Below are positions 23,748 through 64,000 of a stretch of DNA of 64,000 nt, one piece after another. The DNA is taken from the IMG/VR virus record IMGVR_UViG_2718217859_000011, positions 23,757 through 87,756 of that record. The stretch is one strand, 5' to 3'. Source of the stretch: a virus (Duplodnaviria; Heunggongvirae; Uroviricota; Caudoviricetes). The position numbers and the translations under genes were made by a program. The notes below the pieces were generated by a model, which searched no databases, was not told where the DNA came from, and saw only the letters and a list, made by a program, of their open reading frames with translations. Each line of letters starts with the position of its first letter. Within the stretch, counting starts at the first letter, position 1.

Positions 23748-24125
23748 ATGTCGGAAAAATTCCGTTTCAGTCAACGTAGCGAGAAAAATCTGGCTGGTGT
23801 AAAACCACAACTGGTGGCGGTTGTACGCCGTGCGCTGGCGTTGTCGGACGTCGATTTTGGTATTACCGAAGGTTTACGCACGAAAGAACGTCAGAAACAA
23901 CTTGTCGCTGAAGGCAAGAGCCAGACCATGAACAGCCGTCACCTTACTGGCGATGCTGTTGATGTCGTGGCTTACGTTGGTGGCACCATTTCATGGGACT
24001 GGCCGTTATACGAAAAAATCGCCCGAGCCTTTAAACAGGCTGCCGCAGAGCTGGGTGTCGCCATCGAATGGGGCGGAGACTGGAAAACGCTGAAAGACGG
24101 GCCTCATTTCCAGTTAAAACGCTGA
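23748..24125 (+). CDS. Endolysin, peptidase M15-like (L-alanyl-D-glutamate peptidase type)
   Basis: 126 aa from MSEKFRFSQRSEKNL; motifs SRHLTGDAVDV and DGPHFQ; GGAGG RBS. Confidence 0.65.
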   Translation: MSEKFRFSQRSEKNLAGVKPQLVAVVRRALALSDVDFGITEGLRTKERQKQLVAEGKSQTMNSRHLTGDAVDVVAYVGGTISWDWPLYEKIARAFKQAAAELGVAIEWGGDWKTLKDGPHFQLKR

Positions 24126-57630: not shown

Positions 57631-57757
57631 TTTCATTACTGCAAATGCCCCTGCGGGGGCATTTATGGAAACGTAATTAACTCAATAATCGCCTGAAGGC
57701 GAGGGTTTTCTTTAACCAAAATTCAGAGCGGTGCAGCGCATATACGTGGAGAACAAA

Positions 57758-58294
57758 ATGTCATTTATTAAAACTTTTTCCGGGAAGCATTTTTATTATG
57801 ACAAGATAAATAAAGACGACATCGTGATTAACGATATCGCGGTTTCCCTTTCAAATATCTGCCGCTTTGCCGGTCATCTTTCTCACTTCTACAGTGTCGC
57901 CCAACATGCGGTGCTTTGCAGCCAGCTGGTGCCGCAGGAATTTGCTTTTGAAGCGTTAATGCATGATGCAACAGAAGCGTATTGCCAGGACATTCCCGCA
58001 CCACTGAAACGCCTTCTTCCTGACTATAAACGGATGGAAGAAAAAATAGACGCCGTAATCCGTGAGAAATACGGGTTACCCCCAGTTATGAGTACACCCG
58101 TGAAATATGCCGATCTCATCATGCTGGCAACCGAACGCCGCGATCTCGGGCTTGATGATGGCTCTTTCTGGCCTGTACTGGAAGGCATCCCGGCAACAGA
58201 GATGTTCAACGTGATTCCACTGGCACCGGGCCATGCCTACGGGATGTTTATGGAACGCTTCAACGAGTTATCGGAATTACGCAAATGTGCATAA
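57758..58294 (+). CDS. HD-domain phosphohydrolase (YfdR-like)
   Basis: ATG at 57758; HD motif region (HLSHFYSVAQHAV, EALMHDATEAY). Confidence 0.55.
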   Translation: MSFIKTFSGKHFYYDKINKDDIVINDIAVSLSNICRFAGHLSHFYSVAQHAVLCSQLVPQEFAFEALMHDATEAYCQDIPAPLKRLLPDYKRMEEKIDAVIREKYGLPPVMSTPVKYADLIMLATERRDLGLDDGSFWPVLEGIPATEMFNVIPLAPGHAYGMFMERFNELSELRKCA

Positions 58295-59163
58295 CTCATG
58301 TAGTTAGTTTTTCTGGCGGGAGAACATCCGCATATCTTGTTCACCTGATGGAAGAACAAAGAAAGGCTGGCAATAACGTCTGCTACATCTTTATGGATAC
58401 CGGTTGCGAACATCCGCTGACATACCGCTTTATCCGGGAGGTTGTGAAGTTCTGGGACATACCACTAACTGTGTTACAGGTCGATATAAATCCTGAGCTT
58501 GGGCAGCCAAATGGTTATACAGAATGGGAGCCAAAGGATATTCAGACACGAATGCCGGTGCTTAAACCGTTTATGGACATGGTTAAAAAGTACGGTACGC
58601 CATACATCGGCGGCGCGTTCTGTACTGACAGGCTAAAACTCATCCCTTTCACGAAATACTGCGATAACCATTTCGGGCGAGGTAATTACATCACATGGCT
58701 GGGTATTCGTGCAGACGAACCCCGTAGGCTGAAACCGAAATCGGGCGTCCGGTATCTTGCCGAGCTGTCAGATTTTGATAAGTCGGATGTTATCCGGTGG
58801 TGGCGAAAACAACCTTTTGATTTGCAAATCCCGGAGCATCTCGGGAACTGTGTTTTCTGCATCAAAAAGTCAACGCAAAAGCTGGGGCTTGCATGTAAAG
58901 ACGAACCAGGTCTGATGCGAGTTTTTAATGAGCTGGTTACAGGCAAACACGTCAGGGATGGTCATCGCAGAACAGGTAAAGACATTATGTACCGTGGTCA
59001 CCTGACGCTTGACGGAATTGCCAGAATGTCTGCCAACAGCGACTACAGAAATTTGTATCAGGCGATGGTACAGGACAGGCGATTCGATACCGGCTCGTGT
59101 TCAGAGTCATGTGAAATCTGGGGTGATCAATTGGAATTGGAATTCGAAGAGGTAGGGGTATGA
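58285..59163 (+). CDS. PAPS-reductase-like PP-loop protein
   Basis: 292 aa; PP-loop SFSGGRTS near the N-terminus. Confidence 0.65.
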   Translation: MCITHVVSFSGGRTSAYLVHLMEEQRKAGNNVCYIFMDTGCEHPLTYRFIREVVKFWDIPLTVLQVDINPELGQPNGYTEWEPKDIQTRMPVLKPFMDMVKKYGTPYIGGAFCTDRLKLIPFTKYCDNHFGRGNYITWLGIRADEPRRLKPKSGVRYLAELSDFDKSDVIRWWRKQPFDLQIPEHLGNCVFCIKKSTQKLGLACKDEPGLMRVFNELVTGKHVRDGHRRTGKDIMYRGHLTLDGIARMSANSDYRNLYQAMVQDRRFDTGSCSESCEIWGDQLELEFEEVGV

Positions 59164-59698: not shown

Positions 59699-59987
59699 CG
59701 TATGTGAACAGACACGTCTATGGCACGGTAAGCGTCTGTCTGAGCGATACAGGCACGGACGTTGCTATCCACAAGCATTAATTATCAGGAAACGGGGACC
59801 GCTCCCCAAGCATGATGTATTGAAACGAAGACATTTACACAATGATAGAAAAAATACTAAAATAATGATTCAACTCAAAGAGTTGATGTACATAAAATGC
59901 CTCACCAGCCTAGGTGAACATTTTCATGGGTGGGGAAAAACATGATGTGGACCACACTTCCCCCTCTAAAAAGAGGGGAAAGAGTAT

Positions 59988-59995
59988 GGTTTTGT
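59988..59995. repeat. Target-site duplication GGTTTTGT (left copy) of IS1
   Basis: Identical 8 bp at 60764-60771. Confidence 0.7.
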
Positions 59996-60050
59996 GGTGA
60001 TGCTGCCAACTTACTGATTTAGTGTATGATGGTGTTTTTGAGGTGCTCCA

Positions 60051-60326
60051 GTGGCTTCTGTTTCTATCAGCTGTCCCTCCTGTTCAGCTACTGACGGGGT
60101 GGTGCGTAACGGCAAAAGCACCGCCGGACATCAGCGCTATCTCTGCTCTCACTGCCGTAAAACATGGCAACTGCAGTTCACTTACACCGCTTCTCAACCC
60201 GGTACGCACCAGAAAATCATTGATATGGCCATGAATGGCGTTGGATGCCGGGCAACAGCCCGCATTATGGGCGTTGGCCTCAACACGATTTTACGTCACT
60301 TAAAAAACTCAGGCCGCAGTCGGTAA
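60051..60326 (+). CDS. insA: IS1 InsA
   Basis: 91 aa [23 protein letters not shown]... Confidence 0.9.
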
Positions 60327-60748
60327 CCTCGCGCATACAGCCGGGCAGTGACGTCATCGTCTGCGCGGAAATGGACGAACAGTGGGGCTATGTCGGGGCT
60401 AAATCGCGCCAGCGCTGGCTGTTTTACGCGTATGACAGTCTCCGGAAGACGGTTGTTGCGCACGTATTCGGTGAACGCACTATGGCGACGCTGGGGCGTC
60501 TTATGAGCCTGCTGTCACCCTTTGACGTGGTGATATGGATGACGGATGGCTGGCCGCTGTATGAATCCCGCCTGAAGGGAAAGCTGCACGTAATCAGCAA
60601 GCGATATACGCAGCGAATTGAGCGGCATAACCTGAATCTGAGGCAGCACCTGGCACGGCTGGGACGGAAGTCGCTGTCGTTCTCAAAATCGGTGGAGCTG
60701 CATGACAAAGTCATCGGGCATTATCTGAACATAAAACACTATCAATAA
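60245..60748 (+). CDS. insB: IS1 InsB (expressed as InsAB' by frameshift)
   Basis: 167-aa ORF overlapping insA in the -1 frame. Confidence 0.9.
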
Positions 60749-60763
60749 GTTGGAGTCATTACC

Positions 60764-60771
60764 GGTTTTGT
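60764..60771. repeat. Target-site duplication GGTTTTGT (right copy) of IS1
   Basis: Matches 59988-59995. Confidence 0.7.
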
Positions 60772-60818
60772 TGTACACTAAAGGCCATATGGTTTTTTAT
60801 TATGTTTGGATAAGATAA

Positions 60819-61004
60819 ATGAATGTAATAGCATTTGATGAAATAGAATCTAGCATAGCCGCCAATGATCAGGTTGATTCTATCTGCATTGAATTAACAA
60901 CATTTAATCAAGATAATGTCATTTCATTTGAAAGTAAAAAGAAAAATAAAGAAATTCTTGATGCATTTTTTGAAATAATAAATACTGATATAGTTTTCGA
61001 CTAG
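60819..61004 (+). CDS. Small acidic AT-rich ORF (61 aa) upstream of the deaminase gene
   Basis: Weak; could be a real small protein or a noncoding/sRNA region. Confidence 0.3.
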   Translation: MNVIAFDEIESSIAANDQVDSICIELTTFNQDNVISFESKKKNKEILDAFFEIINTDIVFD

Positions 61005-61091
61005 GTAATTAGCAATGGCTGAAGCAGCAAAAAAACTCCACAAAAGCTGAATGAAAAAAAAGGCTCAACATCGGCATCATCACTTGAGATT

Positions 61092-62609
61092 GTGAATTCA
61101 CGACAATCAAAAGATATTTATCTTGGATTGTGTGGATATGTTGGATGTGGCATGAGAACGATAAACAAAATTATCGAAGAGATATCCAAAGAATGGGGGT
61201 ATAATGTTGTACACATCCGCATAAGTGCGCTTATGGAAAACCCATTATATTTTGAGCCAGCAGCACTGAAGGTATCCGAAAGCACACAAGTTAATAGACA
61301 TTTAAAACTCCAGGATATTGCCAATAAACTTCGTAAACATTACAAAAAAAATGAGTTGCTTGCAGAAGCTGCTATTGCAGCAATCGCAGCAGAGAAAAAT
61401 AATATTGATTATAATAATGATGAATATAAAGGTACTGTCTTCATCATTGATCAATTCAAAAGGCCGGAAGAAATAGAGTTATTCAGAGTTATATATCAGC
61501 ATAATTTCTATTTGTTAGGAGTTTTGCGCGATTTAGATTACCGAATTCCGAATCTCATTGATGACGAATCGACAAAGAACGACCTTCATTTAATTATCAA
61601 TATTGATAATAAATCCTCTGATCCGTATGGACAAAGAACCGGGGAGACCATTCTTGATTCAGATTTTTTTATTAAAAATAACTTCAGCCAAAAAAGTGAA
61701 TTAAAGAAGAAGATTGATCGGTTTTTCGGTCTTATTCATGGCAAAAATGGTTTAACACCAACTTTTAACGAGAAAGGTATGTATGCTGCCTTTTCAACAT
61801 CATTACAATCAGCTTGTTTATCACGTCAAGTAGGGGCTGCACTGTTTGATGATGAAGGGAATTTGCTTGCCGTGGGTAAGAACGACGTACCTAAAGCTGG
61901 TGGCGGGTTGTATAGCAGTGATGATTTTGATAACGATCATCGATGCGTTCACAAAAGTGGTAAGTGTTATAATGATGCAAACAAGCTAAAAATTAAAGAC
62001 CGTATAAAAAGCATATTATCAACCGAAGTAAGAACTGTATTAGGTATTTCCGCAGGACAAACTGTTGCCGATATTAATATAACACGACTTCTAAACAAAT
62101 TAGATAATATTGCAGAAGGCATTTACAAAGACAGCAAAATATCAAGTGTAATGGAGTACTCCAGATCAATTCATGCTGAAATGGACGTCATTACATCAAT
62201 GGCTAGAAAACAAAACGGCGATACTAAAGATAAAATTCTTTTTACGACAACCTATCCCTGCCACAACTGTGCAAGGCATATTGTCGCAGCTGGAATAAAA
62301 AAAGTAGTATATATAGAGCCATTTGATAAAAGCCTTGCTCTTGATCTGCATAATGATGCAATAACAAAGAACGAAGAATCTTCCAAAGTAATATTTTGTG
62401 ATTTTGAGGGGGTATCACCCCGCCGCTACCATAAATTTTTTAGACCAACGGATGAACGTAAAGATGATAAAACAGGGGCTGCAAATAAATTTAATGCTCG
62501 CTACAAAAATCATATAGATGTTCAATATCTTGATGATTATAGAAAGTATGAGACTGTTGTAGCTAAGAAATTTATAAACGAGATTGCTAAACCAGAGTCT
62601 CAGCCATAA
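61092..62609 (+). CDS. Two-domain protein: N-terminal NTP-binding-like domain + C-terminal cytidine/deoxycytidylate deaminase domain (AvcD/dCTP-deaminase-like defence candidate)
   Basis: 505 aa; C-terminal zinc-deaminase signature HAEMDVI ... PCHNCARHIVAAGIKKVVYIEP; N-terminal glycine-rich loop GLCGYVGCGMRT; strongly AT-rich. Confidence 0.65.
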   Translation: MNSRQSKDIYLGLCGYVGCGMRTINKIIEEISKEWGYNVVHIRISALMENPLYFEPAALKVSESTQVNRHLKLQDIANKLRKHYKKNELLAEAAIAAIAAEKNNIDYNNDEYKGTVFIIDQFKRPEEIELFRVIYQHNFYLLGVLRDLDYRIPNLIDDESTKNDLHLIINIDNKSSDPYGQRTGETILDSDFFIKNNFSQKSELKKKIDRFFGLIHGKNGLTPTFNEKGMYAAFSTSLQSACLSRQVGAALFDDEGNLLAVGKNDVPKAGGGLYSSDDFDNDHRCVHKSGKCYNDANKLKIKDRIKSILSTEVRTVLGISAGQTVADINITRLLNKLDNIAEGIYKDSKISSVMEYSRSIHAEMDVITSMARKQNGDTKDKILFTTTYPCHNCARHIVAAGIKKVVYIEPFDKSLALDLHNDAITKNEESSKVIFCDFEGVSPRRYHKFFRPTDERKDDKTGAANKFNARYKNHIDVQYLDDYRKYETVVAKKFINEIAKPESQP

Positions 62610-62615
62610 CTGTTT

Positions 62616-62654
62616 CCACTCCTTATTTCTGTAAGGATAAGGAGTGGTGTTTTT
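62616..62654 (+). terminator. Rho-independent terminator after the deaminase gene
   Basis: ccactcctta...taaggagtgg stem followed by tgttttt. Confidence 0.55.
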
Positions 62655-62761
62655 ATAAGTATAATGACCGTCTCTTCATAAATCGGCAAATCGAAATATC
62701 AGCAACCAGTTAATTATAAGCCAAGAATCATTACTATTTTCTTACTCTGTATGTCTATTCA

Positions 62762-64000
62762 TTATTCAATAGGCTGTCTGTTGGAACCTAAATTAGTGTA
62801 AGTAAGAATCGAATCAACCCTATCCCACCATGCCTGATAGGCTTTACGCTGTTCTTCTAGATAATCGCTCTTATCATAAACTTGCCATACCCCTGGCAGT
62901 TTATGACCGAGCATTATTTCAGCAATATGAGGCGCAGTAAGATCAGAAAAGTTTGTTCGTGCTGTTCGTCTCAAATCATGAAGAGACCAATGAGGAAATT
63001 GATACCCCAAACGCCGCCATGCGTACTGCATTAAATTGTAAGGCAGCGACTGCAATGATGTCCGACCAACTGGCTCCTTGCTTCCTTCCTTGGTAAAAAG
63101 CATATCGGAACCGTTGTTCATAGAGATAACGTATTTTATAAGCTCTTCAACCGGTTCAATAATGGGGCGCTTTAGCGGTTCGCCTGTTATATCACCTGTC
63201 TTATGTCGTTCTGGCGGTACAGTCCATACCTTATTAATGAAATCAAAATCATCCATCCTGGCAGTAATCAGCTCTGAACTACGACAGCCGAAATGCAGCA
63301 ATAGTTTAATGAAGGCCCGGTATTTGGGAACCATTCGAGAACCATCGATCGCAGCATAAAGGATTTTAATTTCATCGTGTGTCAGAAACCGTTTCTTCTG
63401 ACCTTTACGTATATCCATATCTTTACCCGTGATATCCGACAGAGGGCGAGTTTCAATGAGCTTTCTCTTATACGCCCAGACATGGGCCTGCTTTGCGTTA
63501 ATTAGCAATCGGTCTGCTATTGCTGGAGTCTTAGTGCTAAGAGGCTCCAGGACCTCTAACCAATCATGCAATGTAGCTACATCGTGAGGGATAATCCCGA
63601 TTTTAGAGAACAGGTGCAGTTCAAATGAGCGGAGTATCTGCTCAGAACCTTTTTTATTTTTTACACAATATGCGTCATACCAGGCACGGATCACAGACTC
63701 CACCGTCATGGCTTCAGTAGCTTTGCGTTTTTCTGCCTGCTTGACCAATCGTGGATTGCGGTTTGACTCGAGTTCACCACGAAGACGGATAACTTCTTCT
63801 CTGGCCTCTTTTAGTCCAGTTGCCGGGTAAGTTCCGATATCAAGACGCTCACCTTTCCCTGCCCATTGATAACGATATTGGAACACTACGCGACCTTTCG
63901 GTGATACTCTGACAGACAGACCATCCCGATCTGATTTAACCAAAACCTTATCACGTTCCTTTCCAACGACTGAACGCAACCACGCATCAGAAAGCGCCAT
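62762..64000 (-). CDS. Tyrosine recombinase/integrase (prophage integrase)
   Basis: 412 aa; C-terminal catalytic region with R...HxLRR...Y pattern (HDLRRTARTN, LGHKLPGVWQVYD); ATG at the window edge. Confidence 0.85.
   Translation of the reverse strand: MALSDAWLRSVVGKERDKVLVKSDRDGLSVRVSPKGRVVFQYRYQWAGKGERLDIGTYPATGLKEAREEVIRLRGELESNRNPRLVKQAEKRKATEAMTVESVIRAWYDAYCVKNKKGSEQILRSFELHLFSKIGIIPHDVATLHDWLEVLEPLSTKTPAIADRLLINAKQAHVWAYKRKLIETRPLSDITGKDMDIRKGQKKRFLTHDEIKILYAAIDGSRMVPKYRAFIKLLLHFGCRSSELITARMDDFDFINKVWTVPPERHKTGDITGEPLKRPIIEPVEELIKYVISMNNGSDMLFTKEGSKEPVGRTSLQSLPYNLMQYAWRRLGYQFPHWSLHDLRRTARTNFSDLTAPHIAEIMLGHKLPGVWQVYDKSDYLEEQRKAYQAWWDRVDSILTYTNLGSNRQPIE

Follow-up and report, generated by a model that had tools for sequence, protein, structure and literature searches.

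A frameshifted, probable AvcID-type anti-phage module in an Escherichia coli prophage, with a putatively coding avcI locus

Background

What does an AT-rich, two-domain deaminase gene encode when it lies between an insertion sequence and the integrase of a prophage, is this copy of it intact, and by what is it controlled? We addressed these questions for a stretch of 64,000 nucleotides of Caudoviricetes DNA (IMG/VR record IMGVR_UViG_2718217859_000011, positions 23,757 to 87,756), called the window in the following. A reading of the letters and the open reading frames (ORFs) alone, the sequence-only reading, had pointed out a 505-amino-acid (aa) ORF at 61092-62609 as a candidate defence gene of the AvcD/dCTP deaminase kind, and had proposed profile searches and structure prediction as checks. 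Our analysis makes it very probable that the locus is a prophage-borne nucleotide-depletion module of the AvcID type, of which the allele at hand is frameshifted and, as we infer, attenuated or inactive. The element directly upstream, at the position of the antitoxin avcI, is by its pattern of substitutions a conserved coding sequence under purifying selection, belonging to an unannotated small-protein family. Coding selection was unexpected here, as the literature up to a 2025 review treats AvcI as a non-coding RNA.

In the relatives studied experimentally, AvcD acts on dCTP and dCMP as a deaminase and needs both of its domains. Its neutralisation by the avcI locus is post-translational; avcI transcripts vanish when host transcription stops, and the deoxycytidine (dC) pools then collapse. 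T7 escape mutants map to modifiers of the host RNA polymerase, and the AvcID system of enterotoxigenic E. coli (ETEC) protects against T3 and several SEC phages. According to the AvcID preprint, the inhibitor DifV/AvcI lies directly 5' of the deaminase on the same strand, is co-transcribed with it and coincides with a small 'hypothetical' ORF. The four small ORFs considered there are stated to share no similarity.

Results

The deaminase

The 505-aa protein was compared with profile collections and predicted structures. The NCBIfam equivalog NF041025, 'anti-phage dCTP deaminase', matches it at 464.7 bits with a curated cutoff of 400, and aa 9-457 of the protein align to positions 2-437 of the 437 in the model. 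The PADLOC dCTPase model PDLC02373 gives E = 2.1e-162, and the Pfam family dCMP_cyt_deam_1 matches aa 226-408 at 6e-15. These matches place the ORF among the anti-phage dCTP deaminases (AvcD), a family that is already known and named. Its parts are as follows, nucleotide positions being those of the window.

61092-62609, plus strand: avcD core ORF of the present allele, 505 aa from a GTG codon
about aa 9-215 of the 505-aa form, N-terminal: P-loop domain resembling nucleoside monophosphate (NMP) kinases
about aa 225-450 of the 505-aa form, C-terminal: Zn-dependent dCMP/dCTP deaminase domain
61122-61157: glycine loop
61449-61454: DQ motif
62172-62180: HAE motif (aa 361-363)
62256-62270: PCHNC motif (aa 389-393)

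Conservation of single residues was read from two alignments, of 15 and of 53 family members. H361-A362-E363 and P389-C390-H391-N392-C393 are invariant in them. The glycine loop GLCGYVGCGMRT (aa 11-22) has no Lys; G15 and G18 never vary and C14 and G20 hardly do, and since no family member carries the Walker Lys, the lysine-less loop is a signature of the family. The sequence-only reading was right that the Lys is missing, but had called the loop atypical, which it is not among AvcD proteins. The AvcID preprint reports that S52, D162/Q163, E384 and C411/C414 of the V. cholerae protein are each required for activity. These correspond to T22, D120/Q121, E363 and C390/C393 of the window protein, all invariant or nearly so. 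In the AW1.7 protein, too, the catalytic Glu and the Zn ligands of HAE and PCxxC are essential. Substitutions that make the V. cholerae enzyme insensitive to AvcI are E123K, A126T, K201R, K511E and Q514R.

An AlphaFold2 model of the 505-aa protein has a predicted local distance difference test (pLDDT) score of 89.7 and a predicted template-modelling (pTM) score of 0.87, with a high-confidence core starting at residue 9. Foldseek relates the N-terminal domain of the model to NMP-kinase-like P-loop proteins (3lw7, 2if2, 7e9v) and the C-terminal domain to dCMP deaminases (2w4l, 2hvw, 7fh4, 1vq2), including the bifunctional dCMP/dCTP deaminase of PBCV-1. A sequence search of the PDB returned only single-domain dCMP deaminases, and neither it nor the fold search yielded a full-length structure of the AvcD family. 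Pfam, model and fold search agree on the fusion of an NTP-binding-like domain with a C-terminal deaminase that had been read from the letters; both proposed checks came out positive, with the zinc ligands aligned, a kinase-like N-terminal half and a dCMP-deaminase-like C-terminal half.

We also considered that the protein might be a housekeeping or competence dCMP deaminase (ComEB/Dcd-like), or a toxin editing nucleic acids (MafB19/APOBEC-like), and not a defence enzyme acting on free nucleotides. Such a reading could draw on weak Pfam matches to MafB19-deam (1.6e-7), Bd3614-deam and APOBEC-like families, and on an NCBIfam ComEB match of 40.6 bits. However, the ComEB model (TIGR02571) has a cutoff of 219.45 and covers aa 358-422 only, the ComEB class consisting of single-domain proteins of about 150-190 aa, and the toxin and APOBEC families score at or under their cutoffs with matches confined to the shared Zn-binding core. 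These matches are far surpassed by the full-length ones to the equivalog and to PADLOC, the fusion to a kinase-like N-terminal domain and the position as prophage cargo fit AvcD, and the relatives act on dCTP and dCMP, editing of phage DNA not being reported for them. We regard this alternative as highly improbable. By their profile scores, a housekeeping deaminase, ComEB, TadA and an APOBEC/MafB19-type editing toxin were rejected.

The AvcD family is very large, 4,679 proteins among the candidates scored reaching E <= 1e-5. The window protein is 63% identical to the AvcD of ETEC strain H10407 and its type, and 45-46% identical to the AvcD proteins of V. parahaemolyticus and V. cholerae. Within E. 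coli the module was found in 49 of 5,426 complete genomes, always on the chromosome beside the same integrase near yjjG and always with the RefSeq name 'anti-phage dCTP deaminase'; the copy of E. coli 08-00022 (NZ_CP013662.1) is identical to that of the window. A megablast of the module against phage and plasmid collections gave no match. Profile searches, motif alignment, fold search and the RefSeq annotation of the identical locus all sustain the assignment to a dCTP deaminase defence gene carried as prophage cargo, its function being assigned by homology.

A frameshift near the native start

The sequence-only reading had taken the 505-aa ORF for the gene. The ORF is present as described, with its GTG start, HAE and PCHNC, but comparison with relatives free of insertion sequences (IS) indicates that the native gene is longer and that a frameshift had been missed. 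In GB089 and 1303 the avcD coding sequence (CDS) measures 1,596 bp (531 aa) and starts at an ATG equivalent to position 61015 of the window. Two further features are needed here.

61015-61050, plus strand: native avcD start ATG 61015 and the 11 codons that the frameshift leaves of its frame, up to TGA 61048-61050
61029-61035, plus strand: poly-A tract, A7, the frameshift site; in frame A AAA AAA

The tract consists of seven A in the window and in 08-00022 and of eight in GB089 and 1303. From ATG 61015 the frame of the window is shifted after codon 7 and stops after 11 codons; when one A is added back in silico, the protein becomes identical to the 531 aa of GB089. This allele thus has no intact full-length frame from the native start. 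Among the 49 E. coli genomes, 12 carry A7 and 37 carry A8. The A7 genomes are 08-00022, ten bovine isolates from Okinawa and the Tibetan pig strain N96, and because the shorter tract recurs in 12 of 49 genomes from three independent sources, we take it to be a real allele and not a read error.

The comparison identifies the 531-aa form as native and the 505-aa GTG ORF as a remnant of it. Every full-length homologue has a basic tail of 25-35 aa ahead of a conserved block RQS..[IL].G[LF]CG. The N-terminus reads MAEAAKK in the native window form and MAIALKK in H10407 AvcD. GTG 61092 is not a conserved start, as it aligns to an Ile codon in H10407, and the sequence in front of it (CACTTGAGATT-GTG) has no well-spaced Shine-Dalgarno (SD) motif. 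The gene is a family member by descent, and its allele is frameshifted.

It might be argued that the 505-aa product of GTG 61092 is fully functional, the shift trimming only a dispensable, disordered tail and leaving a working defence. The high-confidence core of the AlphaFold2 model and the alignment to the NCBIfam model both start at residue 9 of this form, the 26 aa lost are of low complexity and poorly conserved except for the initial M[AS]..AKK, and the Prokaryotic Genome Annotation Pipeline (PGAP) calls a CDS and not a pseudogene. However, the start chosen by PGAP differs between genomes for the same sequence, the basic tail is kept by every full-length family member, and GTG 61092 has the poor placement just described. 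Additionally, the module carries IS insertions in every one of the 12 A7 genomes, with IS421 inside avcD in 11 of them, which suggests relaxed selection. A fully working 505-aa enzyme seems unlikely to us.

The A7 copy is more plausibly attenuated or inactive, possibly with some leakage by slippage. Across the tract the ATG frame reads GC-A-AAA-AAA-CTC, a heptamer of the form X XXY YYZ. Ribosomes and polymerases can slip at such slippery heptamers, and slippage at this tract is conceivable on that general ground; if the ribosome slipped by -1 on A AAA AAA, or the polymerase slipped there by +1A, exactly the wild-type protein would result.

A run of eight A is present at 61054-61061, in the region coding for the N-terminal tail and 19 nt past the A7 tract, so that the start of avcD holds two mutable or slippery runs (61029-61035 and 61054-61061). 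In Res13-Lact-ER01-35, ESDR8 and EC28, avcD spans 1,608 nt, compared with 1,596 in the intact A8 form; the 12-nt difference suggests an in-frame length variant.

The small ORF upstream of avcD

The region between the IS1 copy and avcD had been read as a weak 61-aa ORF, or else as a regulatory or antitoxin RNA. An antitoxin element does fit by position and by the layout of H10407, but 'weak' does not describe the ORF.

60764-60818, plus strand: leader of 55 nt from the IS1 junction to the small ORF, conserved in Budvicia and Morganella by alignment
60819-61004, plus strand: small ORF of 61 aa (186 nt), positional homologue of avcI/difV, assigned to a conserved small-protein family

An SD-like GGAT precedes the ATG of the small ORF. 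The SD motif of avcD (UAGGU, 61002-61006) overlaps the stop codon of the small ORF, and 10 nt separate the ORF from the native ATG 61015. The layout that characterises AvcID, with the inhibitor locus on the strand of avcD, directly 5' of it and at the place of a small 'hypothetical' ORF, is found in the window.

We examined 83 avcD loci, namely 80 species representatives together with V. cholerae, V. parahaemolyticus and H10407. In most gammaproteobacterial loci avcD is closely preceded, on its own strand, by an ORF of 50-80 aa with a conserved C-terminus, for example YKKALEKILSRASKIDW, KKEAKERVYKAANNLSW or ATRALLEQAKQLGW directly before the stop codon. The motifs of this small protein are QLSL.F and NV[IV].F, together with an amphipathic helix that comes after a basic stretch and typically ends in L.W and a stop. 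The 174-nt ORF that defines functional avcI in V. cholerae is in the same frame as the small ORF of the family. In the subclade of the window (E. coli, Budvicia, Morganella, Citrobacter, Dickeya, H10407) the alignable end is KEILDAFFEIINTDIVFD and a stop, the final Trp being absent; the 61-aa ORF itself has the NV[IV].F motif and the C-terminal amphipathic helix.

Substitutions in the small ORF follow its reading frame. The ratio of nonsynonymous to synonymous divergence (dN/dS) is 0.11-0.36 in 11 of the 13 pairs with unsaturated dS, and in eight independent pairs the substitutions at codon positions 1, 2 and 3 number 106, 62 and 170 (chi-square 52.4, p = 4e-12). The corresponding ratio of proportions, pN/pS, was lowest in the frame of the ORF in all four frame controls. 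Furthermore, most of the start codons are preceded by SD-like motifs.

A profile built from upstream copies only also matched directly 3' of avcD in loci without a 5' copy, for example L057 (6e-8), L060 (1e-6) and L061 (4e-6), whose downstream copies all end in SLNW and a stop. After one iteration the profile placed the gene 5' of avcD in 41 of the 83 loci and 3' in 13, left it undetectable in 29, and had no match elsewhere in these loci. Pairs of the downstream type show dN/dS of 0.16-0.23. No model in Pfam or NCBIfam covers the small protein, and its database copies are all named 'hypothetical'. Searched against 1.8 billion proteins, the profile gave 10 significant matches, and it is too short to gauge the size of the family.

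The 29 loci without a detectable partner (within L050-L086) belong mostly to Bacteroidota, Alphaproteobacteria and Lysobacterales (Xanthomonadales-type); these clades may have a different or more divergent partner, or none. Serratia sp. DD3 carries identical modules of avcD and small ORF on three contigs (L021, L022, L049), the ORF lying 138 nt upstream, which reflects either a multi-copy element or an assembly duplication.

RNA or protein antitoxin

We give about even chances to the proposal that the 'non-coding sRNA antitoxin' (small RNA) AvcI is, or also encodes, a conserved protein of roughly 50-80 aa helping to control the deaminase, which would make AvcID a protein-antitoxin module or one of RNA and peptide, and that the 61-aa ORF of the window is a divergent member of this protein family. 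We infer that the small protein takes part in the regulation of AvcD.

The published view would make the upstream element a purely non-coding antitoxin RNA of type III, with an incidental ORF and peptide conservation as a by-product. In its favour, start-to-stop and ribosome-binding-site-less (RBS-less) versions of the V. cholerae ORF, when overexpressed, still inhibit AvcD and block its toxicity, and avcI RNA outnumbers avcD mRNA 20- to 60-fold (AvcID preprint) and is lost after transcription shutoff. Later work describes a complex of AvcI RNA and AvcD in vitro. In eight of eight pairs the small ORF has diverged less than avcD at synonymous sites (only about 33 of them per ORF), and such slow synonymous sites are compatible with an additional constraint at the RNA level.

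However, an RNA-only element does not predict the 3-nt periodicity of the substitutions, dN/dS well below 1 in the frame of the ORF only, a stop codon that always comes directly behind the conserved L.W motif, or peptide motifs that are kept when the gene sits on the other side of avcD. The preprint reports that truncations of 18 nt at the 5' end or 4 nt at the 3' end abolish the activity of avcI; the same truncations also take out the start region of the ORF or its Trp-stop end. The foldability of the RNA is barely above that of shuffled controls, with a mean z of -0.39 over 37 small-ORF regions (-1.0 in V. cholerae, +0.2 in V. parahaemolyticus) and values of +0.1 to +0.9 for the avcI region of the window (+0.91 in one folding). 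Foldability so near to background lends no useful support to a structured RNA and does not refute an RNA function. Rfam holds no AvcI family, and a scan of 59700-62900 at E <= 1 returned only a chance 21-nt match (S4 leader, 22.9 bits against 35.2). A purely non-coding element is possible, though we think it doubtful.

The comparative data do not overturn the published overexpression genetics. They fit a locus of dual function, or a protein antitoxin whose mRNA also matters.

IS insertions and surroundings of the module

The module is delimited as follows.

59996-60763, plus strand: IS1, IS1A-like, 768 bp; supported by RefSeq annotation, inverted repeats and target duplication
62616-62657, plus strand: hairpin resembling an intrinsic terminator, with a 13-bp stem (62616-62647) followed by a T run, just past the avcD stop
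62762-64000, minus strand: complete tyrosine integrase of the prophage, 412 aa, convergent with avcD

Over 60760-62760 the G+C content is 0.31-0.37, compared with 0.45-0.56 in the flanks. AT-richness, a terminator of its own and the integrase-proximal position had all been noticed from the letters, and each stands. Beyond the integrase, the matching genome (E. coli 08-00022) continues with the chromosomal gene yjjG.

IS1 contains insA (60051-60326) and the insB frame (60245-60748), and its inverted repeats agree in 18 of 23 positions. Target duplications of 8 bp, GGTTTTGT, border it at 59988-59995 and 60764-60771. As the IS-free relatives carry a single, uninterrupted GGTTTTGT at the target site, this is a simple insertion without deletion. 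Its end at 60763 lies 55 bp ahead of the small ORF starting at 60819, the distance given by the sequence-only reading. The insertion interrupts a block that is conserved from E. coli to Budvicia and Morganella. This block, which lies between the small ORF and a hairpin at about 59961-59978, has to include the native promoter; the 55-nt leader must hold the core of that promoter together with the ribosome-binding site of the small ORF. A scan of 60764-60818 for the sigma-70 consensus found no promoter match, and the overall counts were under the shuffled expectation.

IS1 occupies the identical junction in 11 genomes, all A7, and IS421 lies inside avcD, after about position 62420 of the window, in 11 of the 12 A7 genomes. 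At least one IS is present in the module in 12 of 12 A7 genomes and in 0 of 37 A8 genomes, an association that counts as a single observation since the A7 genomes form one clade. We read the insertions as relaxed selection after the frameshift.

At identical sites, 08-00022 has IS1 only, the ten Okinawa isolates have IS1 and IS421, and N96 has IS421 only. This pattern is incompatible with a simple tree and needs repeated insertion, precise excision or prophage recombination. In a V. cholerae locus (L087, 2501-6391) the avcD copy is 521 aa long, with genes of the IS66 family about 65 nt after it, and may have been truncated at its C-terminus by the IS, which would be a further instance of IS damage to the module.

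The hairpin at about 59961-59978 (CCCCTCT-AAAAA-GAGGGG), just upstream of the IS1 target, is kept in Budvicia and Morganella and could serve as a terminator or an insulator between the module and upstream prophage transcription. Just upstream of the module, at 57731-59163, the prophage encodes two nucleotide-related proteins, a YfdR-like HD-domain 5'-deoxynucleotidase (187 aa) and a protein of the PAPS-reductase family (292 aa).

Discussion

Proposed mechanism

By analogy with the relatives, AvcD would convert dCTP and dCMP to dUTP and dUMP and would be kept inactive by the labile product of the adjacent avcI locus. A phage that shuts off host transcription would let the inhibitor decay, and the freed AvcD would then empty the dC pool and stall the replication of phage DNA. 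All parts of such a module are present in the window: an ORF at the avcI position (60819-61004), avcD from ATG 61015 to the stop at 62609, and the terminator, the predicted catalytic and nucleotide-binding residues being intact. From the A7 allele the full-length enzyme would require slippage on A AAA AAA, either ribosomal (-1) or transcriptional (+1A), while a protein shorter by 26 aa could start at the poorly placed GTG 61092. The inhibitor is probably a dual-function mRNA, or a protein acting together with RNA, because throughout the family the avcI locus doubles as a conserved gene for a small protein.

Several points weigh against this picture. For the A7 allele as well as for the intact A8 form, function is carried over from homologues at 45-63% identity. 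PGAP still calls the 505-aa CDS, and the folded core in the AlphaFold2 model of the A7 allele is complete. The promoter could not be placed by the consensus scan. Modelled alone, the small protein reaches a pLDDT of 51, with two predicted helices and little else, and inhibition by the start-to-stop and RBS-less constructs, together with the complex of RNA and AvcD, means that the protein may be dispensable for inhibition.

Implications

The deaminase adds little that is new, being a damaged copy, in one E. coli lineage, of a named and experimentally founded family. The small-protein signal is the interesting part, as it amounts to coding selection in a locus regarded in the field as a non-coding RNA, and this selection on the partner is seen with either gene order, in Gammaproteobacteria, Betaproteobacteria, Desulfobacterota and other groups. 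Should the peptide be made and act on AvcD, the classification of AvcID and the model of its trigger would need revision, and defence-system finders should count the dCTP deaminase as a system of two genes. Which form of AvcI is active and why it so exceeds avcD mRNA, questions left open in the AvcID papers, would then become directly testable. In addition, the series of alleles, namely A8 intact (37 genomes), A7, A7 with IS1 upstream and A7 with IS421 inside, is a natural dissection kit for the tolerance or loss of a toxic module.

Relation to known systems

The type III toxin-antitoxin systems ToxIN and TenpIN resemble AvcID in having a labile antitoxin transcript 5' of the toxin, in being activated by loss of transcription and in acting against phages. 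Antitoxins of the ToxI type are RNAs with tandem repeats and a strong structure, which an endoribonuclease toxin processes. The window differs from ToxIN in having no repeats, weak RNA foldability, a deaminase as toxin and a conserved coding region in the place of the antitoxin.

The dCTP deaminases of E. coli AW1.7 and U09 (Tal et al. 2022; 'dCTPdeaminase' in DefenseFinder and PADLOC) have a kinase-like N-terminal domain and a C-terminal Zn deaminase domain, as in the window. Defence and dCTP depletion depended on both domains, and the cloned fragments included the native upstream regions of the genes (Tal et al. 2022). The AW1.7 protein, set beside the window protein by description, has 576 aa and is regarded as a system of one gene.

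The AvcID systems of Vibrio (DcdV-DifV; V. cholerae VSP-1 and V. parahaemolyticus) share with the window the two-domain enzyme, the essential residues and a 5' partner on the same strand, whose ORF belongs to the same small-protein family. The Vibrio ORF ends in QAKQLGW and a stop, 77-82 nt from avcD, whereas the subclade of the window has lost the terminal Trp and, in the window, the gap is 10 nt.

One of the closest known modules has the same arrangement. The AvcID system of H10407 plasmid p58 (Hsueh et al. 2022; NC_017723.1, 2618-4414) consists of a 186-nt ORF, a short gap and avcD; its ORF (2618-2803) encodes 61 aa and is followed by a 12-nt gap and an avcD of 532 aa, compared with 10 nt and a native 531 aa in the window. 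The H10407 module, whose upstream element neutralises only its cognate AvcD and which protects against T3 and SEC phages, sits on a small mobilisable plasmid, whereas the window copy is chromosomal, in a prophage beside the integrase. Nucleotide identity between the two is about 67%, and only the window copy is frameshifted at the poly-A tract, with IS1 55 bp upstream. The two AvcD proteins share all motifs, and both small ORFs carry NV[IV].F and F..I[IL]..[DE]I[IV][FL]D, the latter directly before the stop.

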